From positions 32,001-96,000 of IMG/VR virus record IMGVR_UViG_3300027861_000001: DNA of 64,000 nt. One strand, written 5' to 3'. The stretch's first letter is position 1, and the number at the start of each line of letters is the position of its first letter. This stretch comes from a virus. The translations under genes and the position numbers were made by a program. This document shows positions 30,365 through 47,314 of the stretch, one piece after another. The notes under the pieces are model-generated. The model did no database searches, had not been told where the DNA came from, and was given only the letters and a program-made list of their open reading frames with translations.

Positions 30365-30367
30365 ATC

Positions 30368-30652
30368 TTAACTCGTCCAACAGACAAATCTTGCAATACA
30401 ATCTTCACAATCAGGACACGGTAGTTTATCTATCTTTTCATGAAAATGCCTTAGCACTTCATACTTTATACCATTCTTCACTTCTTCATGAGTTTCGTAA
30501 CAATTGTTACAATCCCAGCATTCGTGTATCCAAGAGTCATAATCAACTATATCCCAAGAATTTAATTCGTTGTGTCTGTCTTTAGAAGTATAAACCCAAC
30601 CCCAACACACCCAAACTGAACCACAATAGTCGCATGTTCTTAAATTATTCAT
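30368..30652 (-). CDS. Cys-rich protein with C-terminal tag
   Basis: Ends CEDCIARFVCWTS*. Confidence 0.72.
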   Translation of the reverse strand: MNNLRTCDYCGSVWVCWGWVYTSKDRHNELNSWDIVDYDSWIHECWDCNNCYETHEEVKNGIKYEVLRHFHEKIDKLPCPDCEDCIARFVCWTS

Positions 30653-30929
30653 AATATAACATATCCAAGCTGTCAGTCCAGCACGGAAACTTATATTTAC
30701 ATTCGTCACAATTATAAGGTACTATTTCCCACGGATACATCCACACACTAAAGAAGAATGATGGATTGCTGGTTGTAATACTTACCAAATACAATTCACC
30801 TCTTGGTGCTTTAGTTTCAGCTGTTACGATTCTTACATCAAACTCTCTACTTGTAAATGTACCCTGCCAAGTCTCGTCCAAATGAACTCCATTTGGTAAA
30901 CAGACCTTGTCGTCAACTTCAAACTTCAT
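30645..30929 (-). CDS. small protein with near-terminal tag
   Basis: CDECKYKFPCWTD. Confidence 0.72.
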   Translation of the reverse strand: MKFEVDDKVCLPNGVHLDETWQGTFTSREFDVRIVTAETKAPRGELYLVSITTSNPSFFFSVWMYPWEIVPYNCDECKYKFPCWTDSLDMLYYE

Positions 30930-30933
30930 TTTG

Positions 30934-31006
30934 AGCCCCCAGTAGGAATCGAACCCACAACCTATCGCTTACAAGGCGATTGCTCTTCCAGTTGAGCTAT
31001 GGAGGC
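30934..31006 (-). tRNA. tRNA-Thr(TGT)
   Basis: ATCGC-CTTGTAA-GCGAT. Confidence 0.92.
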
Positions 31007-31011
31007 GTAGT

Positions 31012-31260
31012 TTACTTTCCTCTTATAGCAAGTATGAACAAAACTAACCACGCTGTTGCGTTTATGCATGTTGCCACTATTGATGCCACCAATCCCATAC
31101 TACCAAATACACCAGCCAAACAAAACAAGCACAATGCTGTCATACCTGAACTAAACTTACTTACATAAATACCCTGCAAAGCCATTTTAATTTGTGGGAT
31201 TAGCATAAATCCCAAAGACATTATCAAGACAGTAGTTACATAGTCCTGCCAAATCATCAC
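31012..31260 (-). CDS. PQ-loop/SemiSWEET-like 3-TM membrane protein
   Basis: LIPQI motif and three hydrophobic segments. Confidence 0.55.
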   Translation of the reverse strand: MMIWQDYVTTVLIMSLGFMLIPQIKMALQGIYVSKFSSGMTALCLFCLAGVFGSMGLVASIVATCINATAWLVLFILAIRGK

Positions 31261-31396
31261 TTACCCTTCTTTTTCTTATTCCTTTTAGTAACGGCGTTTT
31301 TATACATTTCTCCTAAACCACCACCGTGCCTAGGTATATTCTCTTTTTTAGTTTTTTGTTTCCTGTCTCTTCTTTGCCACTTGTATTCGCTTGACA

Positions 31397-32215
31397 TTAT
31401 GTTATCTCGTTTATAGATTCTATATTCGCTATGGTTATACCATTTATAGTGTCTGCGTGAACTAGTTGTATACCGTTCCTATAATGGTCAGCTAACGGAT
31501 TACCAACATCACCACCAGCCCAAGGATATGGTAGAAAGCAAGGTACTGGTGATTGATCATATGTTACCTCTAACGCAAACTTGGCTTTAGCAAGTACCGA
31601 AACAGAAGTACTCCATGCTACTGGTGGTTCCTGCCTTTGTGGATCACTATAAGTACTAACTTGAGATGTGAATCCAAACCCAAGAGTTGTGAACCCAGAC
31701 GTGTCAACCCAATCTGCTGCATATTGATTTCCAGTAAGCCTGTACCACTTATTTGTTGTTATTTCGTCTAAATGACAGGCTCCTATACTTAGTAGATGAT
31801 CATCACCTACAAACTGCATTGCGTTTCCGAAATTAAAAGAACCATCCAACCAACTTGGTAAGAATATACCCAAGTCACACTCATATACCCCTAAGTAAAG
31901 ATTTGGTAATGGTAAGGTTAACGTTTCAAAATTAAAAAGAAACCTAACATTTGTAATTGTAACTGAGCCTATAGTGCTTGTGTCAAAGCAGCAAACACTC
32001 CTTCTAACTCCAGTATACATCCCTGTTCTTTTAACTCCACCATATGTTGTGGCTCCTACCTCAACATAAGATTCCTCGTATTCATTAGTTGACCAAGTGT
32101 TGTGGTCAAACGATGTCCAAATATCGTAAGAATCTGTCATGTTCCCTGAACCACACTTTGCTGGATCATCTCCTGATACTGGATAATTCCAACTACCCGC
32201 TGTAAATATTCCCAT
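31397..32215 (-). CDS. putative virion-associated beta-sandwich protein
   Basis: Acidic, aromatic-rich, Lys-poor; RS..FDTS.I..TIT; C-terminal INGITIANIESIN. Confidence 0.5.
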   Translation of the reverse strand: MGIFTAGSWNYPVSGDDPAKCGSGNMTDSYDIWTSFDHNTWSTNEYEESYVEVGATTYGGVKRTGMYTGVRRSVCCFDTSTIGSVTITNVRFLFNFETLTLPLPNLYLGVYECDLGIFLPSWLDGSFNFGNAMQFVGDDHLLSIGACHLDEITTNKWYRLTGNQYAADWVDTSGFTTLGFGFTSQVSTYSDPQRQEPPVAWSTSVSVLAKAKFALEVTYDQSPVPCFLPYPWAGGDVGNPLADHYRNGIQLVHADTINGITIANIESINEIT

Positions 32216-32224
32216 ATTGTTCTC

Positions 32225-33340
32225 CTATGTTATATCCGTATCAGTCCAATCACCAGGTGTAAACGCCGCAGAAACACCATCAGCCTCATAACTCTCATTA
32301 CTATCACCAAAATCTCTACAAAAAGTTCCATCAGGTATCCAAAGAAGGTGGTCTTTATCTGCTGTTAATGATGGGTGACCAATTTCTATAGAGCAATCTC
32401 CAGTAAATATCGGGGTTATCGGTACTTGTGTTTCTTTATAAAATCCTTCTCCTTGTACCCCTTCCCACAACTCAATATCGTTTAAACTTGCTCCGCTCAC
32501 AAGTTTTATCGGACGATCATACACAAATCTAAGGTGTGTATTTATAGCTGGTGCTGTGGTTACACCACGACCAACAGTCCAACTTGTAAGATGCGGAGGA
32601 TCAAAATATACGTCACGATGGTACATTTGAACCTCTCCAAATGTTACATAGGGTTCAAATCTAATCCATTTTCCACTACTAGTCCACGGATCACCATAAG
32701 CTGGATACTCTATTACTTCTCTTATTCCTAAAACTAAATAAATGGTCTCTGTGTAAGATTGGCTATTAAAGATTGAAAGACCAGCAGAGTTTACGTTAAA
32801 AGTAACGTGGTTGTCGTCCACATAAGAGTCTAAGTCTATATAAGTATCACAGATTAACGTTGCGTTCTGGTTTATTGTCTTAAAGTCTGCCTCACTATGA
32901 TTAATCCCAGTAACAGTGTATAATCCTAAACTACAACCAGAGAGCCAAGAATAAGCACTATCTTTTTCACCATATACTTCCACTGCTAAACTTTGCAGTT
33001 CGTTAACACCATATCTTTCTGGATAACAAGAACCGTATCCGTATCTGTCAACTCCCCAAATAGTATGGTAACAACGAGAATACTTACTATCAGCCTCAGT
33101 AGATAATTCAACCGCTCCAGCGTAATGATAAAAAGATTGATAAGAGTCATGCCAATCTCCGCCCCAAGTGAACCAATAATAACCCCACTCGGTCTCTTCC
33201 CAGTTTCCATCTGCTTGAACTAGTTGTAATAGCGTCAATGGTGATGGGTGTGGGGAAAGAGACGTATCAAAAGCAGTCTCCGCACTAAGCACAATATTAC
33301 TAGGAGAAGCATTACTTCCGGCCCATCTTTCTGTCCACAT
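32225..33340 (-). CDS. putative virion-associated protein with C-terminal Ig-like domain
   Basis: Same compositional bias; the C-terminal ~100 aa resemble an SbsA/Big_5 Ig-like pattern. Confidence 0.5.
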   Translation of the reverse strand: MWTERWAGSNASPSNIVLSAETAFDTSLSPHPSPLTLLQLVQADGNWEETEWGYYWFTWGGDWHDSYQSFYHYAGAVELSTEADSKYSRCYHTIWGVDRYGYGSCYPERYGVNELQSLAVEVYGEKDSAYSWLSGCSLGLYTVTGINHSEADFKTINQNATLICDTYIDLDSYVDDNHVTFNVNSAGLSIFNSQSYTETIYLVLGIREVIEYPAYGDPWTSSGKWIRFEPYVTFGEVQMYHRDVYFDPPHLTSWTVGRGVTTAPAINTHLRFVYDRPIKLVSGASLNDIELWEGVQGEGFYKETQVPITPIFTGDCSIEIGHPSLTADKDHLLWIPDGTFCRDFGDSNESYEADGVSAAFTPGDWTDTDIT

Positions 33341-33579
33341 TAATGTTCACCTCCAGACTCTGTCCAACAACGAAATCTTTCTTCACACTTTTTACATCTT
33401 ATTTGGTTACACCCAATACCTTTGCTTCTAACAAAGTCATAATACTCGTCACACGCACCACGTTCCCTACACATTTCCCTTCTCCATTTGTTCAAAGGAA
33501 TCCAATCACACCAAGCAGTATCATAATACGTACATTTTCGTTGTATACAAAAATTATCTCTCTTTTGTTCGTCATTCAT
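33340..33579 (-). CDS. small protein with near-terminal tag; starts directly after tRNA-Pro
   Basis: CKKCEERFRCWTE. Confidence 0.7.
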   Translation of the reverse strand: MNDEQKRDNFCIQRKCTYYDTAWCDWIPLNKWRREMCRERGACDEYYDFVRSKGIGCNQIRCKKCEERFRCWTESGGEH

Positions 33580-33580
33580 G

Positions 33581-33654
33581 TCGGAGCAAAAGGATTTGAA
33601 CCTTTGACTTCTGCGCCCCAAACGCAGTGCTCTACCAAACTGAGCTATACTCCG
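33581..33654 (-). tRNA. tRNA-Pro(TGG)
   Basis: CTGCG-TTTGGGG-CGCAG. Confidence 0.92.
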
Positions 33655-34043
33655 TCGTACCAATTAAGTTGTTTAGCAGTTCTCCTTCTGTGACAATTAG
33701 CACACAGAACTCTACACTTATTTAGTTCCCTGCTTATCTTACCCCAAGAATAATTATTTTTTACCATATTGGAAACAGTATCAAATTTATCTATGCTTGC
33801 TCTGTGGTCAAAATCTAAGACTACAAAATCACTCTCACCACAATCCTCACATGGGTGAGTTAAACAATACTCTCTTAGTTTTAGATATTTTGTAAGTCTC
33901 CTAATCTTAGCGTTTTTATTTTTTGCTTTTTTAATTTTTTCTTTATTTTTATGATAGTAATTTCTATCATACACTTGTTTGCATGATCTACAGTATGGAC
34001 TATGTTTTAATCTATTGTTTTTACCGCACTTGTAACATTCCAT
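33645..34043 (-). CDS. HNH endonuclease
   Basis: CEDCG..LDFDH..KCRVLCANCH; stop codon lies inside tRNA-Pro. Confidence 0.85.
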   Translation of the reverse strand: MECYKCGKNNRLKHSPYCRSCKQVYDRNYYHKNKEKIKKAKNKNAKIRRLTKYLKLREYCLTHPCEDCGESDFVVLDFDHRASIDKFDTVSNMVKNNYSWGKISRELNKCRVLCANCHRRRTAKQLNWYDGV

Positions 34044-34190
34044 TTAATCAGTCCAACATCTAAATCTTTCTTTACATTTTTCGCATTTCATTCTGAAGCA
34101 AACAGCTTTTGCTGCTGGTGGTAAGTCTCTTACAGTGTCAAGTAAAGTCTTCACTAAAACAATACAGACAATAATAAATAGTAAATCCAT
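34044..34190 (-). CDS. 48-aa protein with N-terminal hydrophobic segment and C-terminal tag (below ORF-track cutoff)
   Basis: MDLLFIIVCIVLV...CEKCKERFRCWTD*. Confidence 0.7.
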   Translation of the reverse strand: MDLLFIIVCIVLVKTLLDTVRDLPPAAKAVCFRMKCEKCKERFRCWTD

Positions 34191-34774
34191 CTGCTGTTAT
34201 TTACTTATTGATTTTTTTCTACATAATCTTGATAACTGTCGTCCAACTCAATAGCTGTTTTTGCAGCAACAATTAGGGACGCAGCAAGCACTAGTGCTTC
34301 CTCAATTGTCAAATCAAAGCTTCCTTCTCTAACATATCCATGAGTAGCTCTATTCAAATCAATAGGATTTTCATACAGCATTACTCTAGTTCCTTCTAGA
34401 ATCACTAAAACATCAGGGCCTTCCCCCCAAGTACATTCAGCTCTCATTATATGCTCTCACTTTTCTGACCCACTCTAACCATAAGCTGTCTTCTTTTTTC
34501 TCAGCAGTGTTTCTTATGGTCATTATTTCTTCTCGTATGCTCTTTCCTAAGTCCCAACACTTTTCACAACAAAAGTTTGGGTAATCACACGTAAATCTTG
34601 GGTTATCTAGGTTACAATCATAGTCAAAAAGTACAGCACAAAACGTACAAACATCAACCTTACCACACATGACACACTCTTTAACGCTTACTCCTGTGTT
34701 GTTGCTGCGTCCACAAACATCACACACAGTTTCTGTTATTGTTATACTCTCTACTTTTTCTGTTCTCATTTTAG

Positions 34775-35347
34775 TTACTCTATGTTATCAACTAAACCCA
34801 TAAATAAAGCTTGATCCGCACTCAAAAAATTAGGATGGTCTGTTTTCATTAAATTATACCAATAGTCAGCCTTGTGATATTGTTCCTCGTCTGAAGTATT
34901 TTTTTCTGCATACACCTGAGCCGATTGAGTTGTTAACCCTTTCATGTACTCCATATATTCTTCGCTCCCCTTCATGTCTGTCTCCTGTGCAGAACGCATA
35001 CCGTGAACCATTAACCAAGAATGTTCACTAACTACTCTTTCATCGCACGTTTGAAGAATATCTAACATCATACTCATTGCGTGTCCATATACTTTACCAA
35101 CCACTCTAACACCTTTTGATTGAGCATATCTAATAGAAGCTACTATACCCAAGCCTGACTCCACATCTCCGCCAGGAGAATTCATTACTATAGTAATGTC
35201 ATTACATGCAACATCTACTTTGTTCGCTAATAGTAGAATATCTTGTGTTGCTATGGTTGCCATTACTGAGTCTACGTGTCCGGTTAGTACTATTATTCCT
35301 TGGTCACGAAGAAGTTTTCTCTCTTTGTCTTTTTCCTCAAATATCAT
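34775..35347 (-). CDS. clpP: ClpP-like serine protease
   Basis: MNSPGGDV, AMSM (catalytic Ser), MVHG, FLSADQALFMGLVD. Confidence 0.85.
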   Translation of the reverse strand: MIFEEKDKERKLLRDQGIIVLTGHVDSVMATIATQDILLLANKVDVACNDITIVMNSPGGDVESGLGIVASIRYAQSKGVRVVGKVYGHAMSMMLDILQTCDERVVSEHSWLMVHGMRSAQETDMKGSEEYMEYMKGLTTQSAQVYAEKNTSDEEQYHKADYWYNLMKTDHPNFLSADQALFMGLVDNIE

Positions 35348-35652
35348 TTACGATCTCCTACAAATTAATACTAAACACACCACCCACAACAACCAAATGA
35401 GACTTTCTCTGCTACTTTCTCAGCAATTTCATTATATTCGTTTATAGTTATACCATATTTGGTTAACACATCTTCGCTAGTTGGTTTAATGTCTGCCCGC
35501 ATGTCACCACAAGCATAATCTTCAGCAAGATGAGGAGCGTGATCATACTGGTCTACAAAGTCATCCATGTCTGCATTAATGTTATTTATACTAAATTTAC
35601 GCAATGCACAAAGAGCACTATAACTTTCTATCTTCAATTTCATCTTGATCTC

Positions 35653-35880
35653 CTATTCAGTATAACATTCAAACCTTACTTTACAATTATTACATTCTGA
35701 CATATCGAATTTTTTATTGTTTGTACACCAAATCCACGCACCGACGTTGTTCTTACATTTTGGACATGTGGTACAATACTTATCTACCCAAAACACATCT
35801 AAATAATCTTCATACGACAAAGGAAAACCACACTTTGGACAAGTTGCAAAAGCATATTTTTCCAACTTTTCCCTATCCAT
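35653..35880 (-). CDS. Zn-ribbon protein with C-terminal tag; starts directly after tRNA-Glu
   Basis: Ends CNNCKVRFECYTE*. Confidence 0.72.
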   Translation of the reverse strand: MDREKLEKYAFATCPKCGFPLSYEDYLDVFWVDKYCTTCPKCKNNVGAWIWCTNNKKFDMSECNNCKVRFECYTE

Positions 35881-35881
35881 G

Positions 35882-35954
35882 TAGTGCTAGGGGGAGTCGA
35901 ACCCACCGTTAGTAGGTTGAAAGCCTACTGTCATAACCGTTAGACCATAGCACC
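35882..35954 (-). tRNA. tRNA-Glu(TTC)
   Basis: GTAGG-CTTTCAA-CCTAC. Confidence 0.9.
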
Positions 35955-35960
35955 TAGTTG

Positions 35961-36043
35961 TGGTAGCGGTAGGACTCGAACCCACGTAGCCCGTCGGGCG
36001 TCTGATCTACAGTCAGATGCAATTGCCACTCTGCCACACTACC
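35961..36043 (-). tRNA. tRNA-Tyr(GTA)
   Basis: TCTGA-CTGTAGA-TCAGA; long variable arm. Confidence 0.92.
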
Positions 36044-36049
36044 TTTTTG

Positions 36050-36123
36050 TACCAACGGATGGACTCGAACCATCACTAATCCAATTTTAAGTCGGACGCC
36101 TCTGCCAATTGGGCTACGCTGGC
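36050..36123 (-). tRNA. tRNA-Leu(TAA), short variable loop
   Basis: TCCGA-CTTAAAA-TTGGA. Confidence 0.88.
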
Positions 36124-36129
36124 TTATGT

Positions 36130-36206
36130 TGGTGTCAGTGGAAGGAGTCGAACCTTCAACATTTCGGGTTTGAGCCGAACACCTCTACCAATTGGGTTAC
36201 ACTGAC
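36130..36206 (-). tRNA. tRNA-Leu(CAA), short variable loop, CCA encoded
   Basis: TTCGG-CTCAAAC-CCGAA. Confidence 0.88.
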
Positions 36207-36598
36207 TCGTCTAATTCATCATCATCTTCCGACATAATGCAATGCCCTGGACAATCTTCGGGGTTTTTCCCCATCCACTTTTCCACTGCTAGTATTCTAT
36301 CTTCTCCAAAAACGGTAAAGTTATATAATCCTGCAATCATAAGGAGATTTCCTAATCCTTTACCTTCTCCTCGTCTTTCTTCGTCTACTAATTCAAATAA
36401 GAGGTCTTCTGGAATTACTAACATATTACCACTTAACGCACCTCTCAACCACAACACCTCTGCCTTATCAGTCAAATAAAGATCACTATTGTCGTAATCT
36501 TTTTCTATATATCTTTCGTCAATTGGTAACTCTCCTTCTTTATAAAACGTTTGATCGCTATATATCTGCTTCCTCAGTTCGTCAAGAAAATCATCCAT
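36197..36598 (-). CDS. acidic hypothetical protein (stop codon inside tRNA-Leu(CAA))
   Basis: AGGAGG SD before MDDFLDEL. Confidence 0.65.
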   Translation of the reverse strand: MDDFLDELRKQIYSDQTFYKEGELPIDERYIEKDYDNSDLYLTDKAEVLWLRGALSGNMLVIPEDLLFELVDEERRGEGKGLGNLLMIAGLYNFTVFGEDRILAVEKWMGKNPEDCPGHCIMSEDDDELDESV

Positions 36599-36619
36599 TG
36601 AAAACCTCCTAAATTTATG

Positions 36620-36690
36620 CACACCCATAAGGATTCGAACCCCAAGTTGGTGGGCTGGAGCCACCCGTGTTACCGTTACACTATGGATGC
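36620..36690 (-). tRNA. tRNA-Trp(CCA)
   Basis: GGTGG-CTCCAGC-CCACC. Confidence 0.88.
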
Positions 36691-37042
36691 ATATTTATGT
36701 TTTATTTCTCCACTCATCATCAAAATAATCCATCAATTCGGAAATTGTTGCTGTACTAACATCACTCAACGAGGTAGGTAAATTATTGGCGGTCATAATT
36801 TTAACCCACTTGTCGTGCCCTTTTTGTGCTGCTGCTTTTGTATCATACATTTCAACTATTACCCAATCACCATCACTATACCTTGGATGTTTTACTCCAG
36901 TTTCGTAAGGTTGTCTAGAGTCTGTTACTTTACACGTGTCTACTACTAAGTCTCCATCTTTGTAATTGTCCACCACTCTTTGCTCATAAGTACCCACCAT
37001 ATCAAAATAGTCAAACATCCTTCCCTCCCAAATTTATTTCCG

Positions 37043-37113
37043 CGCCGTGTAGGGGTATCGATCCCCTGCTCCCACCTTGACAGGATGGCGTTCTACCTTT
37101 AAACTAACACGAC
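37043..37113 (-). tRNA. tRNA-Asp(GTC)
   Basis: CCATC-CTGTCAA-GGTGG; T-loop ATCGATA. Confidence 0.85.
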
Positions 37114-37618
37114 TTTCTTAGAATAAACGTTTCACCTAGCTACTGCGTTTACTCTCATTCTTACAAATTATACTTCTCCAAAAATTCAATAAGCTTTGGT
37201 ACATCTTCGTCTCTTAAAATAAAGTCTCCTACTTGTCCATCACGCCCGCGCAGTGCACTCCAAGCTTGTTTTATCCTCCACTTTAAGTCTGCCTTACCAG
37301 CTAAATACATATTAAAATAAATGTGTGACCTTTCTCTACCGTCTCGTTCTTTACCATCGTATATCTCTACTTCTACATCCATTGAATGTTCTTGTGCCAT
37401 ACAATCACAAGGGAACCTCACAACGTCATAATCATTACTACAGTAAATTTGTTCCATCTTTCTCCTTTATGTATTTCTTTAACAAATCAAGTTACAGCGT
37501 ACTCCACAAGAATGCGTATTTCATCGGTTGTAAACTCACAACCTAGTGTACAAGTGTTATCTTCATTCTCTATTATTTCATTTATTTCCACTGTAACTAC
37601 TCCTTTTACTTAATATGA

Positions 37619-37846
37619 CTAAACATAATCCCACGATTTAGTCCAACACTCAAATCTTTCTTTACAAAAGTTACATTTCCTATCGTCTACTAACCTTCTT
37701 CTACACTGCCTAAAGTAAGCATCATTACCAAAAATTTGTGCTTTCATTTCTTCCCACATTTCTAATGTGAGTGCATCATCTGTTGGGCCTAGCTTTTCCC
37801 CATACACCTTTTCAAAGATTTCTTTGGTTACTACTTCTCTATCCAT
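37619..37846 (-). CDS. small protein with near-terminal tag
   Basis: CNFCKERFECWTK. Confidence 0.7.
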   Translation of the reverse strand: MDREVVTKEIFEKVYGEKLGPTDDALTLEMWEEMKAQIFGNDAYFRQCRRRLVDDRKCNFCKERFECWTKSWDYV

Positions 37847-37859
37847 TCATCAATCCTTG

Positions 37860-37930
37860 AGGTAGTGGAGAGAATCGAACTCCCTTGCCTTGGGTTGCAA
37901 CCAAGTACCTAGCCAGTCGGACACACTACC
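37860..37930 (-). tRNA. tRNA-Cys(GCA)
   Basis: CTTGG-TTGCAAC-CCAAG; U73. Confidence 0.9.
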
Positions 37931-38332
37931 TAATCCCACAAATGTTGGTAATACTTACCAAACAGCTCTACTCCGGTTTGAATTCTAAGTTCAACAGCTT
38001 TTAAACCTTCACTATCTACGTCTATGCCTGTAGACACTAATCTATTCCCTTCTGTTACCATATCACCAACAACTGTGTAAAACTCATCCTCCCAATCTCT
38101 ATCTCTGATGTGGTTGAAGCACCAAATCATTTCATTCAAGGCTTCTATCCAACCTTCAAAAGTTCCAAAATCGCTAGGATACCCATGTGTTGTATCTCTT
38201 AACTGCTCCAACATAGGAACTATTATTTCAGCCAAAGTAGCGTCCATGCTCCATGTGTCTTCTGGACTCAGCTCTACTACTATGTCTCTTACACCACCTT
38301 CGTCTGGATACTCTCCCATTTCTACTTTCATT

Positions 38333-38695: not shown

Positions 38696-38707
38696 ATCTA
38701 TCCTTTG

Positions 38708-38780
38708 TGGACTCGGTACGACTCGAACGTACAACTTACTGCTTATGAGGCAGTTGCTCTAACCCTTGAACTACGAGTCC
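38708..38780 (-). tRNA. tRNA with CAT anticodon (elongator Met or Ile2)
   Basis: ACTGC-CTCATAA-GCAGT. Confidence 0.88.
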
Positions 38781-39165: not shown

Positions 39166-39166
39166 G

Positions 39167-39240
39167 TAGACGTAGAGAGACTCGAACTCCCAACTCCCAG
39201 TTTAAAAGACTGGTACTCTACCCAGTTGAGTTATACGTCC
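39167..39240 (-). tRNA. tRNA-Lys(TTT)
   Basis: CCAGT-CTTTTAA-ACTGG. Confidence 0.9.
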
Positions 39241-39249
39241 TTAATTTCT

Positions 39250-39405: not shown

Positions 39406-39416
39406 TTTGTTCCTCG

Positions 39417-39490
39417 TACTAGCGGGAAGAGTCGAACTTCCAACACCTTGCTTCTAAGGCAAGTGCCTCTACCAATTGGGCTACGCTAGC
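39417..39490 (-). tRNA. tRNA-Leu(TAG), short variable loop
   Basis: CTTGC-CTTAGAA-GCAAG. Confidence 0.88.
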
Positions 39491-39948: not shown

Positions 39949-40176
39949 TTATAAAGTCTCTCCATTAACTAGTGGTAAATACTTGGCTGCATCTTCAATG
40001 TCTACTACTGGTCTGAGTAACACGTCAATTGTATAAGAATCAAACTTGAGTGAGTAACCTCTTACACATTTTTTATCGTGCCACATAACTCTGTGTATTT
40101 TAGCATCTACTTTAACTGGGTTATTATTTTTATCATATATACTATATACAGCTTGCATAATTCTCCTTTCTTTCTG

Positions 40177-40251
40177 CATCCTCGGAGAGACTCGAACTCT
40201 CAGCCTTTGGTTTCGAAGACCACTGCTCTAAATCCATTGAGCTACGAGGAT
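40177..40251 (-). tRNA. tRNA-Arg(TCG)
   Basis: Anticodon loop CTTCGAA. Confidence 0.85.
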
Positions 40252-40715
40252 TCCTATGTCTATTTTCTACGTACTTGTTTACTGCTATGTGGTTTTTGTG
40301 AACCTTTACCGTGACTGTAGGAACGTCCAGCTTTATTCTTTCTTGCCATCCAAGCACTACGAGAACGAACTTCGCTTCCATTTTTACAGTAAGGACAACC
40401 ACATTTCGTGTTGAACATGTGTCACCTCCTAGTGCGCCATCATGTTCCACCTCCTAAAAATTTAATATCCACTTTACCTTCTCCTAAAGAACCAATATAG
40501 GAACCCTAGTAGTGAGAGTAGTAAAGCACCAATTCCAATTACTTTTTTCATTTTACATATCTTCAACTTGTTCTACTCTCCATGAGTTACCACACTCAGG
40601 ACAGATAACTTGGTCAGACGCTAACAATAATAAAGCACACTGGTGAAGACAATCATGATGATTATAGTCCTCAATACAATCATGAAATTCACCGCACCGA
40701 CATTTTTCTTCCATC

Positions 40716-41429
40716 TTAACTCCCCCATCGACTTTGAGACTCCACCAAAATTCTTCCTTCTATGATAAAATCTTCCAAGTCATTTTCCACTAACCATTCC
40801 TTAATCCGAAGCATTCTTTGTTTTCTGTCAGTTTCTTCAACAAGAATAGCATCCCCCGAATCAACGTGTTTCTTTCCAAGTGCCAAGAACTCGTCCCTAA
40901 CTGTGCTTAAATAGTTAAAGTTCATCTCACACCACTTAGCTTTCTCCCCTTTGTCCCATCTCTCTTTTATTCTCTCGATATTCCAATCAAGTGGTGGTAA
41001 AAGAATGACAAACTTCTTTGGTTGTGGAGTATTTGATTTCTTATAAAGGTCTTTTGTCATCTTTACGATATTCTTATACTCTTTCTTTGATAACCAACCT
41101 AACTTTTCAAACGCTGACATATAAACAAGGTCATCAAAGCAACATCTGTCTCCAATAACGACAGAACTATCCGATTGAGTTTGAACGTATGCTAGATTTT
41201 CTCTATGTTCAACGCAATGAAGACCCATTCTCCATACCTGCCTAGTTACTTCATCATCTATGCTTTCCATATGAGCAATTTGCTCATTTACTTTGTGTGG
41301 GTCATATGCTTTCAAATCCTCAATTAGTGTAGACTTCCCAACACCATGAGGGCCACACAAATACAAAACCCTGTTGTTATCTTCAGTATTAAATATGTAC
41401 GGGTCTGGTGGAAACATTACCGGTGTCAT
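40716..41429 (-). CDS. deoxynucleoside monophosphate kinase-like P-loop protein
   Basis: GPHGVGKST, VVIGDR. Confidence 0.7.
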   Translation of the reverse strand: MTPVMFPPDPYIFNTEDNNRVLYLCGPHGVGKSTLIEDLKAYDPHKVNEQIAHMESIDDEVTRQVWRMGLHCVEHRENLAYVQTQSDSSVVIGDRCCFDDLVYMSAFEKLGWLSKKEYKNIVKMTKDLYKKSNTPQPKKFVILLPPLDWNIERIKERWDKGEKAKWCEMNFNYLSTVRDEFLALGKKHVDSGDAILVEETDRKQRMLRIKEWLVENDLEDFIIEGRILVESQSRWGS

Positions 41430-41746
41430 ATGAACTTCCTCACTTTGTTAAAGTTTATTTGCACTTTCTTGTTTCGGCTTGTATCCTCCCTGATACTCAC
41501 CTTAATAGTTGGTGTTAAGTAATTCGCAACTATTTCTGCACTTAAGTTATTACCGTTTTTCAAATTTAAATCTTTGAGATTTATAACCAGTGCTTCATCG
41601 CTAGTAAAACATTCGTAACGATGAGTACAATCGCTACAAACTTCTTCAGCATTTTTAGCTCCATGACAGTAAAATTCTTTTCTCCAGTTGTCAGTACGAC
41701 TAGTGTCTTTTACGAGGATTGTTTTCAATTTCTCCCTTCCTTTCAT
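41426..41746 (-). CDS. small protein with internal tag
   Basis: CSDCTHRYECFTS. Confidence 0.7.
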   Translation of the reverse strand: MKGREKLKTILVKDTSRTDNWRKEFYCHGAKNAEEVCSDCTHRYECFTSDEALVINLKDLNLKNGNNLSAEIVANYLTPTIKVSIREDTSRNKKVQINFNKVRKFI

Positions 41747-41984
41747 GACAATCTAATATTGTACCTGTATAACATGTAAAACGATTAGGACACACTTCAC
41801 AACTTTCTATTCTAAGTAAACTTTCAGAAGGATAAGTTAGAGTAGTGCGATATGAGTTTAAAGGATAAACATAATAATTGTTATAATTTTTTTCTCCGAT
41901 TATAAGCCCCATATCCCCAGCGTGTGAGCTTTGATACCCATGTGTATCTATAATCATTACTACATCATTCTTTTTTAATTCCAT
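41700..41984 (-). CDS. SH3-like protein with tag
   Basis: LKKNDVVMII N-terminus; CEVCPNRFTCYTG. Confidence 0.7.
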   Translation of the reverse strand: MELKKNDVVMIIDTHGYQSSHAGDMGLIIGEKNYNNYYVYPLNSYRTTLTYPSESLLRIESCEVCPNRFTCYTGTILDCHERKGEIENNPRKRH

Positions 41985-41991
41985 CTCTACG

Positions 41992-42067
41992 CGCCCCTGG
42001 AGGGACTCGAACCCCCGACGGTCTGCTTAGAAGGCAGATGCTCTGAATCCAACTGAGCTACAGGAGC
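41992..42067 (-). tRNA. tRNA-Arg(TCT)
   Basis: TCTGC-CTTCTAA-GCAGA. Confidence 0.92.
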
Positions 42068-42099
42068 ACAATGCAGACTAAGTGGGCAGAAAAGTTAAC

Positions 42100-42231
42100 T
42101 TAGCAGTTACCCTTTCCTCCACCTTTTCTAGGCCCAATTCCAGGGCCGCTTCTGTTTCCTCCTCCTCTTCCTCTTCCATCTCTCGGACCTCTTGAACCTT
42201 TCGTAGGCCCTGTTCCATCTCTTCCTGGCAT
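42100..42231 (-). CDS. Gly/Arg-rich DUF5320-like small protein
   Basis: MPGRDGTGP start after AGGAGG. Confidence 0.65.
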   Translation of the reverse strand: MPGRDGTGPTKGSRGPRDGRGRGGGNRSGPGIGPRKGGGKGNC

Positions 42232-42502
42232 CTTAGTTCCTCCTGTAAAAAATAGATAATGGATAATTCCAATATCTTTCAACACAAATTAATCTACACT
42301 TGGTTATTACTGTCTACTAACATTTGTATACAATATCTACATAAAACTAAGACAGGTAATTTATCATTTGTATAATTATAATATTTTATCGCGTGTACAT
42401 AACACACGTCTTTTCCGCACACCATGCAAATTTCTTTCCCTTCAAACTGATCATCCTCACAATCATCACAAATCACTTTTTCTTTTGTAATAAACTTCTT
42501 CA

Positions 42503-42754
42503 TTAAACCCCTGATGTTATGCACTTAAACCTGTGTTCGCAAAAACCGCATTTAGGATATGTACCAGCTGGTTGTTTGTATCTTTCTCTATGAATAACAC
42601 ACAAGATTCGCATCTTATTACGACAATTAGTACAATGCACTAATACTGCGTAACCGCTGGTATCTCTACAAAACCTATTTCTAGTAATTATGTTGCAATT
42701 TAAACATTGAAACAACGCACTATCATACGACCAATTAAATTCGTTATATTTCAT
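42503..42754 (-). CDS. Cys-rich protein with tag variant
   Basis: CGFCEHRFKCITS. Confidence 0.7.
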   Translation of the reverse strand: MKYNEFNWSYDSALFQCLNCNIITRNRFCRDTSGYAVLVHCTNCRNKMRILCVIHRERYKQPAGTYPKCGFCEHRFKCITSGV

Positions 42755-42765
42755 TTAAACTTTTG

Positions 42766-42850
42766 CGGAAGCAACAGGATTCGAACCTGTGAGGCTTTTA
42801 CACCTAGTTAGTTAGCAACCAACCTCCTTAAACCACTCGGACATACTTCC
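42766..42850 (-). tRNA. tRNA-Ser(GCT)
   Basis: GTTGG-TTGCTAA-CTAAC; long variable arm. Confidence 0.88.
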
Positions 42851-42854
42851 AATG

Positions 42855-42926
42855 TGGAGCAGGAGAGATTTGAACTCTCTTTTCCAGTGTGCAAGACTGG
42901 TGTTTTCCCAAGTAAACTACAACCCC
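42855..42926 (-). tRNA. tRNA-Ala(TGC)
   Basis: CCAGT-CTTGCAC-ACTGG; G3:U70. Confidence 0.88.
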
Positions 42927-42929
42927 TAA

Positions 42930-43277
42930 TTACACCTTTAACAAACTAAAAAACGGTATTATAATAGCGTTTGGTAAAGCTGCCTTCATATTATTTACTC
43001 CTGCTGGATTCATACTGTGCAAAAATATTGCTGGTGGTTGTTTGTTAGGATGTCGTTCCAACCACTTTGCTACTTCGTAACCTGACTTTTCATCTGATGG
43101 ACAAAACGCTTCACCACCAAGGTCATGATCTAACCATAAACTGTCCCACACTCCCTCGGTAAGTTTAAGGATACAATCATCCACCGTTTCCACACAAACT
43201 ATTTTTTCTTCGCTGAACTTTCTTTTAAAGTAAGTGTGCCTAGTTGTATCATCATCTAAAACAAGAATTCTTTCCAT
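42930..43277 (-). CDS. cyclic-phosphate-processing receiver-like domain protein
   Basis: ILVLDDD, LDHDLG, SGYEVAKWL, HSMNPAG. Confidence 0.8.
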   Translation of the reverse strand: MERILVLDDDTTRHTYFKRKFSEEKIVCVETVDDCILKLTEGVWDSLWLDHDLGGEAFCPSDEKSGYEVAKWLERHPNKQPPAIFLHSMNPAGVNNMKAALPNAIIIPFFSLLKV

Positions 43278-43288
43278 GATTACCTCTG

Positions 43289-43360
43289 TAGGAACGGTAG
43301 GAATCGAACCTACAACTTCCGGTATGTAACACCGAAGCTCTACCACTGAGCTACCGAGGC
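43289..43360 (-). pseudogene. tRNA-Val(TAC) with unpaired acceptor stem
   Basis: D, anticodon and T arms are intact; 5' GCCTCGG does not pair with 3' CGTTCCT. Confidence 0.7.
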
Positions 43361-43560
43361 TTATCTTTCTTTAGTATTTCTAAATCTTCTGGTCTACAAG
43401 CTGCTGAAGTATCACCATTTCCAAAGTTAACAAATACATACCAGTCATTCTTACTAGTTACTACTCCATGTTCAACATCTTTGAATGAACTTGCATGCTG
43501 TGGAATATACATAACCCTATCTCCAGCATCAAAACCTTCTGTTTCCATAATATCATCCTC

Positions 43561-43635
43561 TGGCACCTACGGTTGGATTCGAACCAACATGTCACCGGTT
43601 AACAGCCGGACGCTTTACCCATTAGCTACATAGGT
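43561..43635 (-). tRNA. tRNA-Asn(GTT), CCA encoded
   Basis: CCGG-CTGTTAA-CCGG. Confidence 0.88.
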
Positions 43636-43662
43636 ATTATCCACTAGACCCCTCCACTATAT

Positions 43663-43691
43663 ATAATATCATACGCCTAGCATTTTGTCAA
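43663..43691 (-). promoter_or_regulatory. sigma70-type promoter with GGCGTATG box
   Basis: TTGACA-17 nt-TATTAT on the - strand. Confidence 0.8.
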
Positions 43692-43722
43692 GCACTTTTC
43701 ATCGTCAATTTTTAGTGCCTAT

Positions 43723-43797
43723 TGGGGTGAAATAGCGGAATCGAACCGCTGCCTCCTGGGCCACAACCAAACGTTCTACCATTAAACTAATAACACC
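43723..43797 (-). tRNA. tRNA-His(GTG), G-1/C73, CCA encoded
   Basis: Loop TTGTGGC; two U-U mismatches in the acceptor stem. Confidence 0.8.
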
Positions 43798-43802
43798 ACG
43801 AC

Positions 43803-43848
43803 AAAAAAGGCTAGTACTTTGTTTGAACCTCAGTGACAAAGACTAGCC
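43803..43848 (-). terminator. possible intrinsic terminator or processing hairpin
   Basis: GGCTAG..CTTTGT / ACAAAG..CTAGCC followed by a T-run on the - strand. Confidence 0.5.
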
Positions 43849-44507
43849 GTTTTAACTACTCATAACTGTTTGTCACTACTCTTCTTCTTGTTTCTCAACC
43901 TCTCGCATTTTAAACGTATCTTCCCAGCTAGGTCTCTTGTTTGGAGCAAATGGTCTTTTGAGAGGTTTTCCCCATTGATCTACTTGAGGTCTACTGTCCG
44001 GTTTCTTTTCTTCAATCTGTTTCTCTTCAGGGGTTTCTTCCACCATTACTTAACCTCCAAAAACTTGCTAGTAAGGTCTTCTTTGGTATACATATTACTT
44101 ATGCTTATATTCTTTAAGAGGGCACCATGTTCTTCTAAGAACTTACTAACTCCGTGCTCTGTGTTAAGATGTTGTTTTATGCTTGTTCCACTTCTTCTGT
44201 TCCAAGTACCATCAGGATTAAGAACCAACCCCCACTCTGCATTAATTTCAAACATTATAACCCCCTATAAACATCCCCATGAAGGAGCTTTTTCCTGTCT
44301 TCATAAGGTGCTGCCTTTCTTCTATAATACTCATTTTCCACACAATTAATAACCCCTACAACACGATTAATAGTAAAATAATTAATGTCATCATAAGTTA
44401 ATTCTAGTAATCTTGTAATAGTATAATTCAAAGCTCCATCAACTTTCCCATCGTCAAACGTCTTTAATTGCTTAACCAGTTCATCGATTTGATCATCAAT
44501 CTCTGCC

Positions 44508-44750
44508 CTATCTTCTCGCTTTATATACGGCATCCTTATTCTCCTTTTTCCTCTGCTTCAACCTTTTTTGGTATATCTTTCTTCTACGTTTAATTGACGG
44601 TTTCTCGTAAAACTCTCTTACTTTTAATTCTCGTAGTATACCAGAATTATGCACAGCACGATTAAACCTACTCAACATAGAATCGAACCCAGTCATCCTG
44701 CATTCAGCTTCTCTTCTTCTTTCTGTATCAGTCAATTTTACTTCCGTCAT
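44508..44750 (-). CDS. rpsU: ribosomal protein bS21
   Basis: [37 protein letters not shown]. Confidence 0.9.
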
Positions 44751-45135
44751 CTTCTACTGTTATTAATTTCCACTCGAAATTGCCAGCTTTAATTGCCTTC
44801 TTAATGCTGTTCTGACGAGCAGTCGTCTTACTCTTTCCTTTCTTTATTTCAACAATTACCACTCTTTCAACTCTATTTTTAGACAACCCATCAAATACCA
44901 CAAAGTCAATCGGACTACCTAAGAACCTAGCGTCGCTAGGGTCAAACTCCCAACCAGGAAGATGTGGTACTAATTGTTCATAAACCTTACCTTCAATGGT
45001 GGCTCTACTCCTCTTAATTGCGTCCTGTCTAGCAAACTCTACTTTATCTTTCCAACGATGTTCTCTAACCAGTAGTAACACTAGCAAAAATAAAATTACG
45101 CAAACTCCAACTATCCCAAACATTAATTCAATCAT
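44728..45135 (-). CDS. Holliday-junction-resolvase-like endonuclease with N-terminal TM segment
   Basis: [30 protein letters not shown]. Confidence 0.82.
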
Positions 45136-46085
45136 TACTTGTTTTTTAACCTCTCTATCCTAGGAAGAAACCAGCGTGTTTCCCAATAGTTGGTTAATTC
45201 ACCAAAAGACTTAGAAGGTAAAGGAAGTAATGTATTATCCTTTTCGCATAAAAACTCTTGATAGTTATAAGATAGGGGGATTACATACACCCCACGCAAG
45301 TTTTCCATCCTCTGTGCCTTTGCATGTTTACCAAGTTTCTGAAATGTCTTTACAACTCCGTACCTATCTTTTACTGTACCGTCCTCGTTGTAATAAATTT
45401 CAGAATGTTTACCATGTGTCTTCTTATATTCTTCTCTAACCTTATCCTTCACACTTAGTGGGACAAGTACGGAAGAATAACCCTTTGTCGTGCCTAAGTA
45501 TTTAAACCCTTCTAATCTGTTATAAATACTCGACTTCCCGTACAAAGAAGTTACTGTATATAGTGCTAACTTGTGACCATACTTTTTCTCAAAATAAACC
45601 TGTACTTCTTCACTTTTTACAGACAACGCTGCAAGTTTACCGGTTAAATAGTTATTTAGTGGTGGAGTAGCAATACAATGTTGAACGTTCATTAGATAGT
45701 TTATTTTTTTATGCGTCCATTTATTCTCTTTCGTCCACCCTATATGTTTATCTCTAATCGGTATTGTCAAATCAGAAGAAAGACCTACGATTCCTAATAC
45801 AAATCCAGTTTCCTTATCCCTTATTAGGTAGTGAAATCTTCTTCCTACTTCTCCGCTAAGTGGGGCTGTTGACGTTATAACCCTTCCGTACCACCACAAA
45901 TCTTGTAGGTTTCCTGTATCACAAAAATCTATATAAGGTTGTATAGAACCTAAAGCAGGTACATTCATCTGCACTGTTTCCCAAACAGGTTTAATCTTTT
46001 GTAATCTGTCACTGTGTTTTACTAAATACTCTTCTTTGACTTCAGTTAATTTCTCTTTCAACTCATCTTTAGTAAATTCACTCAT
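45135..46085 (-). CDS. DUF4338/Druantia DruA-like protein
   Basis: GRRFHYLIRD..LGIVGLSS..RDKHIGW..GKLAAL..TSLYGKSSIYNRL..GTTKG. Confidence 0.7.
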   Translation of the reverse strand: MSEFTKDELKEKLTEVKEEYLVKHSDRLQKIKPVWETVQMNVPALGSIQPYIDFCDTGNLQDLWWYGRVITSTAPLSGEVGRRFHYLIRDKETGFVLGIVGLSSDLTIPIRDKHIGWTKENKWTHKKINYLMNVQHCIATPPLNNYLTGKLAALSVKSEEVQVYFEKKYGHKLALYTVTSLYGKSSIYNRLEGFKYLGTTKGYSSVLVPLSVKDKVREEYKKTHGKHSEIYYNEDGTVKDRYGVVKTFQKLGKHAKAQRMENLRGVYVIPLSYNYQEFLCEKDNTLLPLPSKSFGELTNYWETRWFLPRIERLKNK

Positions 46086-46323
46086 TCTTTTCTAAATCAC
46101 TAGCATATCCAACTTTTATATCCGGTTTCCTTTTTCTCCCAGTAATTCCTCTCTCCTCAGTAATATAAAATCCCGCACCTTTGTAGTGGCTGTGCCACAT
46201 AGATACAGTCTTATCTGCTTCACGTCCACATTTAGGACATTTATAAGTAGGTTTAGGTTCAAATTCCTTCTGACGGACTTCAAACTTACTTCCACAAGTA
46301 CAACGATACTCGTATATCGGCAT
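46078..46323 (-). CDS. FmdB-family Zn-ribbon protein
   Basis: MPIYEYRCTCG..CPKCG..KGAGFY. Confidence 0.85.
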   Translation of the reverse strand: MPIYEYRCTCGSKFEVRQKEFEPKPTYKCPKCGREADKTVSMWHSHYKGAGFYITEERGITGRKRKPDIKVGYASDLEKNE

Positions 46324-46597
46324 AATTATGTTCCTTCGGATAAACAACGTCCACTAAACAGCTCGCTCACGTCGTAAATTGGTATTGTGTCCTTAAACTC
46401 TACACCGTCATCCAGTATTACATTATATATTTCCCAATAAATAGGGTCTACTGAAACGTCTGTAGTATCAATCCAGTTTGTTTCTTTTAGATTCTCTGAA
46501 CCACAAAATGGACACGAACTTGTACTTGTTTTTATTACGGACACTAAATGCCCTCTTTCACAAAACTTAGCTATCATTTGTCACATCCTTTCTTTTG

Positions 46598-46672
46598 TAG
46601 TAGGAAGTGGACTCGAACCACTGAATCACGAGCTTATCAGACCCGTCGCTTAACCAACTTGCGTATCCTACA
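46598..46672 (-). tRNA. tRNA-Ile(GAT)
   Basis: Loop CTGATAA; 1:72 mismatch. Confidence 0.8.
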
Positions 46673-47240
46673 TCGATATTACACTACCCCACTGCTCTGC
46701 CATACCTTTTGCTATCCCTAGGAACGTCTTACTTCTCATCTTCGCCCTTTCAGGAGATGGTGCCATCCTCCACACTCTTTGTTCTCTGCCATCAACTATG
46801 TTGGTAGGTTGTAATAGTGGAAGATTTTTTAACCACAAACATGTGGCTTTTGTTTCACCGTGACCAAACTGCCAAGGTTGTATAATTTGATTTGGTTTTC
46901 TCCACTTAGTAGACATAATACCGATAGGATTTTCTATAGCTACAAACTTACATTGCGAATTAGCAAAAGACATAAAAAAGTCTATAGCTTGTTGTTGACT
47001 CCCATCAACTTGTTTTTCTTTAAACCACCTTGCTCCACTAACCGCTAAATGAGTACATGGAGGAAAAGCTATTATCATTTCCCACTTATTGTCTAATAAT
47101 AAACCTACATCCTGTTGTAAATGCCACTCAGGATGTCCTCCAGAGCATGGTTCTAAATCACAAGAAAACGCTTCAAAACCTAATCTTCTAAATTCTATTG
47201 TTACAGCTTGACTTTCTTCACACGCTATTAAGATTGACAT
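46668..47240 (-). CDS. phage DNA cytosine methyltransferase-like protein
   Basis: ILIACEESQAV, AFPPCTHLAVSG, IENP. Confidence 0.75.
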   Translation of the reverse strand: MSILIACEESQAVTIEFRRLGFEAFSCDLEPCSGGHPEWHLQQDVGLLLDNKWEMIIAFPPCTHLAVSGARWFKEKQVDGSQQQAIDFFMSFANSQCKFVAIENPIGIMSTKWRKPNQIIQPWQFGHGETKATCLWLKNLPLLQPTNIVDGREQRVWRMAPSPERAKMRSKTFLGIAKGMAEQWGSVISM

Positions 47241-47242
47241 TG

Positions 47243-47314
47243 TAACGGGGGTGGGGATCGAACCCACGTGGTCAAGTTTATGAGACTTGATGAGTAACCA
47301 ACAACTTCCCCGCT
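47243..47314 (-). tRNA. tRNA-Met(CAT), initiator-like acceptor, atypical D arm
   Basis: AGCGGGG/CCCCGTT acceptor; CAAGT-CTCATAA-ACTTG. Confidence 0.7.

Follow-up and report, generated by a model that had tools for sequence, protein, structure and literature searches.

In animal mitochondria, transfer RNA (tRNA) genes punctuate the transcripts, and excision of the tRNAs yields leaderless messenger RNAs (mRNAs), a model reportedly put forward by Ojala, Montoya and Attardi in 1981. The model is restated in PMC8601606. Here we analyzed a stretch of 64,000 nucleotides (nt) from an uncultured phage (the window; positions 32,001 to 96,000 of IMG/VR record IMGVR_UViG_3300027861_000001), in which tRNA genes lie among small protein genes, some of which begin at the 3' end of a tRNA gene and others of which take their stop codon from the tRNA gene that follows. 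The whole record is 149,053 bp long, has direct terminal repeats and is rated complete. As read from the sequence alone, the locus would resemble mitochondria in its polycistronic transcripts, in tRNAs directly flanking mRNAs, in leaderless mRNAs and in message ends defined by excision. The same-strand tRNAs flank protein genes without room for separate promoters or terminators, and a cut at the tRNA-Cys junction, and at no other, would leave the 'UA' of a stop codon. The phage differs from mitochondria in being a bacterial phage with bacterial-type promoters, a Shine-Dalgarno (SD) sequence on most genes, and tRNA genes that carry C74. Only 5 of the approximately 18 genes located downstream of tRNAs abut them, and the stop codons lie inside the tRNAs, unlike the mitochondrial stops completed by polyadenylation.

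Phage T4 also encodes tRNAs without CCA, whose maturation depends on two host activities, RNase BN/Z and CCA addition. The CCA-less tRNA genes of the present phage would likewise need a 3' endonuclease or trimming together with CCA addition, but T4 depends on the host CCA-adding enzyme, whereas the present phage encodes its own. T4 is not known to have an open reading frame (ORF) that starts at a tRNA 3' end. Phage T5 (NC_005859) is similar in carrying approximately 25 tRNA genes among small ORFs and HNH endonuclease genes, and its coding sequences (CDSs) T5.057, hegC, hegD, and T5.069 overlap the 5' part of a tRNA gene by 6, 14, 23, and 24 nt, respectively, hegC and hegD being HNH endonuclease genes. 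However, all T5 tRNA genes encode CCA, whereas 20 of 23 in the present phage do not; the downstream CDSs of T5 start 18–25 nt away, with none abutting a tRNA 3' end, and many promoters and terminators are annotated. Distant relatives of the phage (contigs of 223–248 kb, collected through alignment of one shared protein at 38–51% identity) also encode CCA in nearly every tRNA gene, with downstream starts 15–30 nt off and preceded by an SD.

Leaderless mRNAs made by cleavage have reportedly been described by Vesper et al. in 2011 (cited in PMC4681348), with MazF as the nuclease in E. coli. In MazF cleavage, as in the cut considered here, an endonuclease cutting just upstream of an AUG turns a leadered message into a leaderless one, but MazF acts in a toxin-driven stress response at ACA sites, unlike constitutive tRNA maturation. 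In Propionibacterium acnes, differential RNA sequencing showed that the 3' ends of tRNAs are cut within CCA, 'always between the Cs', and the authors state that partial tRNA ends can be completed by CCA-adding enzymes (PMC3848588). Actinobacterial leaderless mRNAs, as described in PMC3848588 and PMC6448022, carry a 5'-terminal AUG or GUG and no SD, and a cut between C74 and C75 would leave an exact 5'-AUG at a C74-AUG junction. Actinobacterial genomes also hold such junctions, between tRNA-Gln and glmU and between tRNA-Leu and a response-regulator gene. The known leaderless mRNAs, however, owe their 5' end to transcription that begins on the start codon rather than to the excision of a tRNA, and text searches of these two papers gave no tRNA-released genes. 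Full-text searches of the literature returned tRNA punctuation for organelles only and no tRNA-released leaderless mRNAs in phages or bacteria, and the transcriptome papers on phiKZ, Streptomyces, and M. smegmatis contain no description of such mRNAs.

Start codons at tRNA 3' ends

ARAGORN identified 23 tRNA genes in the window; they span 25833 to 49004, and every one is on the minus strand. Rfam confirmed this set and added a partial tRNA at 43296–43354, a tRNA-Val-like element that brings the total to 24; the rest of the genome holds neither further tRNA genes nor a transfer-messenger RNA (tmRNA) gene. C74 is present in all 23 genes, while an encoded CCA is found in only three; the tail is CA (N73-C74-A75) in 17 genes and CG in three. 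Elsewhere the CA tail is uncommon, with 8 cases among 248 tRNAs of loci that had been retrieved for other purposes. A CCA-adding enzyme is encoded by the phage itself; its domains are a PolyA_pol head, an RNA-binding domain, and an HD domain. At the gene level, both CCA-less tRNA genes and a class II nucleotidyltransferase are thus present, as expected for maturation by CCA addition. A search for a phage-encoded RNase Z-like gene found none.

Five protein genes start at most 5 nt past the discriminator base of a tRNA gene. The ATG directly follows A73-C74 after tRNA-Pro (33579), tRNA-Glu (35880), and tRNA-Lys (39165), with frames open for 75–79 codons, and follows at short distance after tRNA-Met2 (A-C-a-ATG, 47240) and tRNA-Thr (T-C-aaa-ATG, 30929), 1 and 3 nt past C74, respectively. 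All five starts are ATG, and none has a credible SD match in the upstream 20 nt, while an SD-like match precedes 49 of 55 phage genes with a gap of 4–30 nt (about 80–90% of comparable genes). The genes after tRNAs thus fall in two patterns, with either a spacer of 12–29 nt that mostly contains an SD or an abutting start without one, and the five abutting genes show the sequence features of leaderless mRNAs (an AUG or GUG start and no SD). The ORF after tRNA-Glu has no upstream ORF for translational coupling and is preceded by four tRNAs.

Four of the five abutting genes encode proteins with the motif CxxCxx[RK]FxC[WY]T. Approximately 53 ORFs of the genome carry CxxCxxR[FY]xC[WYF]T, mostly at the extreme C-terminus (in the window, for example, at 1196–3333 on the plus strand and 29712–47894 on the minus strand), and of the 12 Cys-motif genes that lie in the tRNA region of the minus strand, 8 come directly after a tRNA as its first downstream gene. 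The alignment with paralogues begins at residue 4 for the ORF after tRNA-Glu, at residue 6 for that after tRNA-Lys, and at residue 14 for that after tRNA-Pro, so initiation must take place at the abutting ATG or very close to it. From this residue 14, which lies upstream of its internal ATG, the ORF after tRNA-Pro is homologous to that after tRNA-Lys. The fifth gene encodes a DNA methyltransferase-like protein, whose start at 47240 is orthologous to the M[KR][IV]L[IV]ACEESQ start of 23 phage homologues, many of which have an SD. On the basis of N-terminal orthology and paralogue alignment, we rejected mis-called starts as an explanation for the methyltransferase gene and for the two ORFs that follow tRNA-Glu and tRNA-Lys. 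A first-pass annotation of the window had described these five starts, three of them as leaving no room for an SD, and a three-Cys tag in four of the genes, and had named the use of other starts by the downstream ORFs as a point that would speak against its reading; the positions and the motif agree with our analysis, and the abutting ATGs are the true starts by orthology and paralogue alignment, with an internal SD-led start possible in the ORF after tRNA-Pro.

The genes around the tRNAs are tightly packed. Of the 16 junctions tallied at the 5' side of a tRNA, 14 have a gap between −10 and +10 nt. Only two strong promoter-like sites were detected across 19 kb of the tRNA region, and terminator-like sites are not more frequent there than in shuffled sequence. 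Because the gaps are tiny and the promoter-like sites few, genes and tRNAs are presumably co-transcribed, and tRNA excision would therefore have to cut at gene–tRNA junctions.

To place these junctions in a wider context, IMG/VR was scanned with a pattern consisting of the common T-loop, 11 free bases, and CATG, which places the ATG at base 75. More than a hundred other phage contigs show the arrangement. Among 81 pattern matches within ARAGORN tRNAs, the ATG is the start of an ORF of 60 codons or more in 31. For viral tRNAs with a C-ATG tail (n = 105), the frame is open for at least 60 codons in 42%, against 8% of 872 other tRNAs and 4–5% for the other two frames of the C-ATG tRNAs (Fisher P = 3.5e-17). 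The 656 other tRNAs of the same contigs, which were not chosen by the pattern, served as an unselected test set. In these, the first ATG of a long ORF falls at offset +1 from the discriminator in no case, at +2 in 13, at +3 in 3, and at +4 in 2, followed by a broad hump from +12 to +30. The spike at +2 is seen in SD-rich and SD-poor contigs alike; the SD-rich contigs have 4 starts at +2, 2 across +3 to +12, and a hump from +19 to +28. Base 74 is C in 93% of the neighboring tRNAs of junction-bearing contigs. When sorted by tail, a long ORF follows in 13 of 28 cases for C+ATG, 5 of 7 for C+GTG, 1 of 16 for C+TTG, and 54 of 720 for other tails, and no start was found at the CCA end of 216 CCA-encoding tRNAs. 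That AUG and GUG serve as abutting starts while UUG does not, together with the gap from +3 to +11, is consistent with two separate modes of initiation, leaderless and SD-led. Many of the abutting ORFs elsewhere carry unmistakable N-terminal signatures, such as a HAD domain that begins at residue 5, a P-loop within residues 9–16, or a lipoprotein signal peptide. In one 25.8-kb viral contig (L250, IMGVR_UViG_3300034018_000565), four genes start exactly 2 nt past the discriminator, the maximum in the sample.

The same pattern was sought in cellular genomes, with one genome per prokaryote species. The frame is open in 32% of 71 cellular tRNAs with the pattern, against 12% of other tRNAs in the same stretches. 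Bacterial housekeeping genes are among those at the junction. In three Microbacterium species, tRNA-Gln is followed by C-ATG and the essential gene glmU (L378:6309-7736, L382:3993-5450, and L420:7450-7998), with the family match running from residue 3, and in five freshwater actinobacteria or close kin (L340, L343, L383, L396, and L434) base 75 of tRNA-Leu(CAA) is the first base of a response-regulator gene. The glmU and response-regulator junctions thus each recur in several cellular genomes. In a Bacteroidota genome, tRNA-Ser is followed by C-ATG and a class 1 fructose-bisphosphatase gene, with the family match starting at residue 2; further cellular junctions involve an RlmKL-like methyltransferase, matched from residue 3, and an aldo-keto reductase, matched from residue 1.

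Stop codons inside tRNA genes

Seven genes take their stop codon from the following tRNA gene, that is, at 7 of the 24 tRNAs. Five stops occupy tRNA positions 8–10, namely TAG in tRNA-Pro (33645), tRNA-Met(CAT) (38771), tRNA-Leu-TAG (39481), and the Val-like element (43351), and TAA in tRNA-Leu-CAA (36197). The stop before tRNA-Ile is a TAG at tRNA positions 3–5 (46668), while at the tRNA-Cys junction only the G of TAG is tRNA base 1 (37930), so that six of the seven stops lie wholly within the tRNA. These seven stops had been noted in the first-pass annotation, and every coordinate given there is correct, although the Val tRNA proved to be aberrant. The family matches of the upstream genes end 0–5 residues short of the C-terminus, as in the NADAR-domain protein, whose homologues end at the same place; the tRNA therefore supplies only two or three codons plus the stop. 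Under a random frame, the probability that all seven overlapping genes stop by position 10 is 0.0018.

A TAG or TAA at positions 8–10 is found in 16 of the 23 tRNAs and in the Val-like element. Among the ten such tRNAs with a close upstream gene, five lend their 8–10 triplet to that gene, while the other five follow a gene with its own stop 3–9 nt upstream; the use of the triplet in 5 of 10 cases against 1 in 3 expected is not significant. This tally is what would be expected if genes gave up their own stop wherever an in-frame stop is available in the tRNA. The distant relatives have similarly dispersed tRNA clusters and many such overlaps. In these relatives, a homologous membrane-protein gene before tRNA-Gln stops at positions 8–10 in two contigs and at positions 0–2 in a third, whose tRNA has no TAG; since its position shifts with the tRNA sequence, the stop follows what the tRNA offers. 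Other viral contigs (119, with 726 tRNAs) show that an upstream ORF of 60 codons or more usually stops 1–10 nt short of the tRNA, and those that overlap it end at position 10 (11 cases), 15 (7), 1 (4), or 22–24 (6). As judged from these comparisons of sequence, the overlaps are a by-product of compaction and not a device, and the phage is extreme in overlap density, not in kind. The caveat of the first-pass annotation that compaction alone could account for the stops thus holds, as their position tracks the available triplet and overlaps occur also in T5 and many other phages.

Three ORFs of 232–318 amino acids (aa) in the relatives overlap different tRNAs more deeply, by 15–23 nt (L089:18541-19494, L090:5418-6185, and L094:12560-13255). 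All three have the same N-terminal domain, with weak matches to HNH, NUMOD3, or endonuclease families, and are probably homing endonucleases placed against tRNA genes, as in T5.

The Val-like element forms a cloverleaf with the anticodon TAC, but a 9-nt tandem duplication (TTCCTACCG followed by TTCCTACAG) separates the T stem from the 3' strand of the acceptor. ARAGORN does not call it, and the Rfam match is limited to model positions 7–64. The 3' strand of its acceptor, CAGAGGT, doubles as the SD of a 115-aa gene at 42930–43277. The element is probably a damaged or decaying tRNA gene.

Proposed release of mRNAs by tRNA processing and its alternatives

We lean, if modestly, toward the explanation that tRNA 3' processing releases leaderless mRNAs. 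The tRNAs and small genes would be co-transcribed in long, compact minus-strand transcripts. Because C74 is the only part of the CCA end that the tRNA genes supply, a tRNA would need to be cut on its 3' side and completed, presumably by the phage CCA-adding enzyme. Excision and end completion being indispensable for these tRNAs, an RNA that starts at or beside the AUG must exist. The cut would fall after C74, or possibly after N73, leaving a downstream RNA that starts with AUG or C-AUG for three genes and with 1–4 extra bases for two more, and these RNAs would be translated as leaderless or near-leaderless mRNAs. Cleavage by RNase P would leave the seven upstream messages without a stop, as a tolerated cost of compaction. 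The first-pass annotation had placed the 3' cut, by RNase Z, directly after the discriminator; a 3' cut agrees with our analysis, but it may instead lie after C74, a position favored by the conservation of this base and by starts that pile up at +2 and never occur at +1. We consider it possible, though short of probable, that a cut just after C74 is a widespread and undescribed route to leaderless mRNAs in phages and bacteria whose tRNA genes encode only C74, a second and distinct way of initiating translation next to SD-led starts, which in the present phage would tie the output of the Cys-motif proteins and the methyltransferase to tRNA maturation and leave the seven upstream messages stop-less. 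If so, gene callers and annotation rules that bar or trim contacts between CDSs and tRNAs would mis-annotate real genes, tRNA 3' processing, with a possible cut after C74, would gain a role in mRNA production, phage tRNA arrays would be expression platforms besides a source of codon supply, and leaderless translation could start from processed 5'-monophosphate ends.

Several observations weigh against the release of leaderless mRNAs. The counts in the unselected offset histogram are small, and the pile-up at +2 may partly reflect a hard limit of compaction at C74. About half of the other junction contigs make little use of the SD, and their hosts may need neither an SD nor a free 5' end to initiate. 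In the phage genome, promoter-derived leaderless genes are not enriched (13 matches against a background of 12). Over their first 42 nt, the abutting ORFs show no unusual lack of structure, and the start of the ORF after tRNA-Glu is more structured than that of 95% of genes. In addition, the ORF after tRNA-Pro has an internal ATG (33474) with a good SD, from which it could start.

Some of these points would be equally expected if compaction alone had shaped the junctions, with the upstream genes stopping normally on uncut RNA and the abutting genes initiated independently of the SD, through an A-rich unstructured start or protein S1. We regard this as plausible but rather unlikely. The coding share of the genome is 90%, and 107 of 282 gene starts in a crude gene call (38%) lie at −20 to +3 nt relative to the preceding stop; C74 is the last conserved tRNA base, which makes +2 a natural limit; and starts without an SD occur elsewhere in the phage, for example in the gene after tRNA-Ser-GCT. 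The seemingly damaged Val tRNA at such a junction, the SD-poor contigs, and the lack of both promoter-derived leaderless genes and open 5' ends fit this explanation as well. However, an SD-less AUG located 2 nt from a stable acceptor stem is a poor binding site for the 30S subunit, and compaction accounts neither for the depletion of starts from +3 to +11 and their absence at +1, nor for the use of ATG and GTG but not TTG at +2, nor for the lack of abutting starts at CCA-encoding tRNAs. Moreover, excision of the tRNAs is required whichever explanation holds, and the processed RNA species must therefore be present.

Two further explanations have less in their favor. The junctions could be scars of mobile genes, with homing endonuclease or cassette genes targeting tRNA borders, in which case they would reflect the choice of target and not a logic of expression. 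The gene that overlaps tRNA-Pro does encode an HNH endonuclease, hegC and hegD of T5 and the endonuclease-like ORFs of the relatives overlap tRNAs, and two-thirds of the Cys-motif genes in the tRNA region directly follow a tRNA. We nevertheless consider insertion improbable as the explanation, as most junction genes do not encode nucleases (NADAR, DUF2283, and methyltransferase genes in the phage, glmU and fructose-bisphosphatase genes in bacteria), and approximately 35 plus-strand Cys-motif genes have no tRNA neighbor. Insertion also leaves the translation of the abutting genes unexplained, and would therefore supplement the leaderless model without replacing it. The junctions could also form a dedicated switch, as the first-pass annotation had proposed, in which the rate of tRNA maturation turns upstream genes off, through non-stop mRNAs and tmRNA tagging, and downstream genes on. 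Such a logic follows from the anatomy of the junctions, two distant relatives have a tmRNA gene in their tRNA clusters (L090 and L093), and a low output would suit a homing endonuclease. On the other hand, the stop position as such is not conserved, as seen in the tRNA-Gln relatives, the overlaps fit the availability of frames, the upstream genes have no common functional theme, and the phage genome has no tmRNA gene, which together make a switch very improbable. Of the earlier proposal, the parts with support are the non-random occurrence of the junction in phages and bacteria, which fits leaderless release, and the true SD-less starts, while the on/off switch found no support.

Genome context and neighboring genes

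The only sequencing run found to contain this DNA is a seawater metagenome, probably the sample of origin; no RNA run contains it. The phage genome has a G+C content of 37%. From approximately 26 kb to 64 kb of the window, every gene lies on the minus strand, and about 75 small genes share the compact tRNA region with the 24 tRNA genes; the positions of the features discussed are collected in Table 1. Stop usage across the genome is TAA 147, TAG 79, and TGA 56 (n = 282). Recoding of TAG as a sense codon was ruled out, since TAG accounts for 79 of 282 stops and the genome has no suppressor tRNA; TAG is an ordinary stop in the phage, and recoding therefore does not explain the junctions. In the distant relatives, an amber-suppressor-type tRNA(CTA) is present at L089:17891-17968, L090:17644-17720, and L093:16047-16118, and tmRNA genes lie within tRNA clusters at L090:19071-19421 and L093:16710-17095; the present phage has neither.

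Table 1. Positions of junction genes, tRNA genes and promoter-like sites in the window
Feature	Position	Strand	Remarks
CCA-adding enzyme gene, 445 aa	1..1229	+	Begins 108 nt before the window; PF01743, PF12627, HD domain
Cys-motif protein, 94 aa	30645..30929	-	Start 3 nt past C74 of tRNA-Thr
tRNA-Thr	30933..31006	-	Then T-C-aaa-ATG
Cys-motif protein, 79 aa	33340..33579	-	ATG at base 75 of tRNA-Pro; no SD
tRNA-Pro(TGG)	33580..33654	-	TAG at 8-10 ends HNH gene; then A73-C74, then ATG
HNH endonuclease gene, 132 aa	33645..34043	-	phrog_2255, E = 6.7e-27; last two codons and stop within tRNA-Pro
Zinc-ribbon/Cys-motif protein, 75 aa	35653..35880	-	ATG at base 75 of tRNA-Glu; no SD
Four-tRNA array Leu-CAA, Leu-TAA, Tyr, Glu	35881..36206	-	Spacers 5-6 nt; Glu then A-C-ATG
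Orphan gene, 133 aa	36197..36598	-	SD aggagg; stop within tRNA-Leu-CAA
tRNA-Cys	37859..37930	-	Base 1 is G of upstream TAG
Gene of phrog_11543, 133 aa	37930..38331	-	Function of family unknown; family match reaches last residue
tRNA-Met/Ile2(CAT)	38707..38780	-	TAG at 8-10 ends DUF2283 gene
DUF2283 gene, 60 aa	38771..38953	-	PF10049, E = 2.2e-15; stop within tRNA-Met/Ile2(CAT)
Cys-motif protein, 76 aa	38935..39165	-	ATG at base 75 of tRNA-Lys; no SD
tRNA-Lys	39166..39240	-	Then A-C-ATG
tRNA-Leu(TAG)	39416..39490	-	TAG at 8-10 ends NADAR gene
NADAR-domain gene, 155 aa	39481..39948	-	PF08719, E = 5e-28, match to residue 154
tRNA-Val(TAC)-like element, aberrant	43280..43360	-	TAG at 8-10 ends upstream 65-aa gene
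Gene of phrog_18065, 65 aa	43351..43548	-	Function of family unknown; stop within Val-like element
Second strong promoter-like match	43663..43691	-	Upstream of tRNA-Asn; consensus match only
tRNA-Ile(GAT)	46597..46672	-	TAG at 3-5 ends methyltransferase gene
DNA methyltransferase-like gene, 190 aa	46668..47240	-	phrog_757, E = 1e-70; start 1 nt past C74 of tRNA-Met2, no SD; stop within tRNA-Ile
tRNA-Met2(CAT)	47242..47314	-	ARAGORN
Strong sigma-70-like promoter match, TTGACA-17-TACAAT with TG	49038..49066	-	Just upstream of tRNA-Gly; consensus match only

A search of INPHARED found no similar phage, with all matches being tRNA-sized, and the replication proteins (polymerase, helicase, and primase) have less than 32% identity to anything among isolated phages. 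Viral contigs scanned with one protein at a time gave nothing for the DNA polymerase, the DIP1984-like protein, or the product of the kinase-like gene; the scan with the ClpP-like protein gave relatives at 27–51% identity only, and a scan of metagenome contigs with the NADAR protein gave generic homologues only, at up to 55% identity. The methyltransferase gene is promiscuous, with homologues in unrelated phages, mostly without tRNA neighbors. The tRNA region also contains genes for a ClpP-like protease (34775–35347, minus strand) and a deoxynucleoside-kinase-like protein (40716–41429, minus strand); T5 likewise has a Clp-like protease gene and a deoxynucleoside monophosphate (dNMP) kinase gene beside its tRNA region. 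A 316-aa protein encoded within the tRNA region at 45135–46085 (minus strand) matches the Druantia defence protein DruA (PF14236, E = 7e-28).

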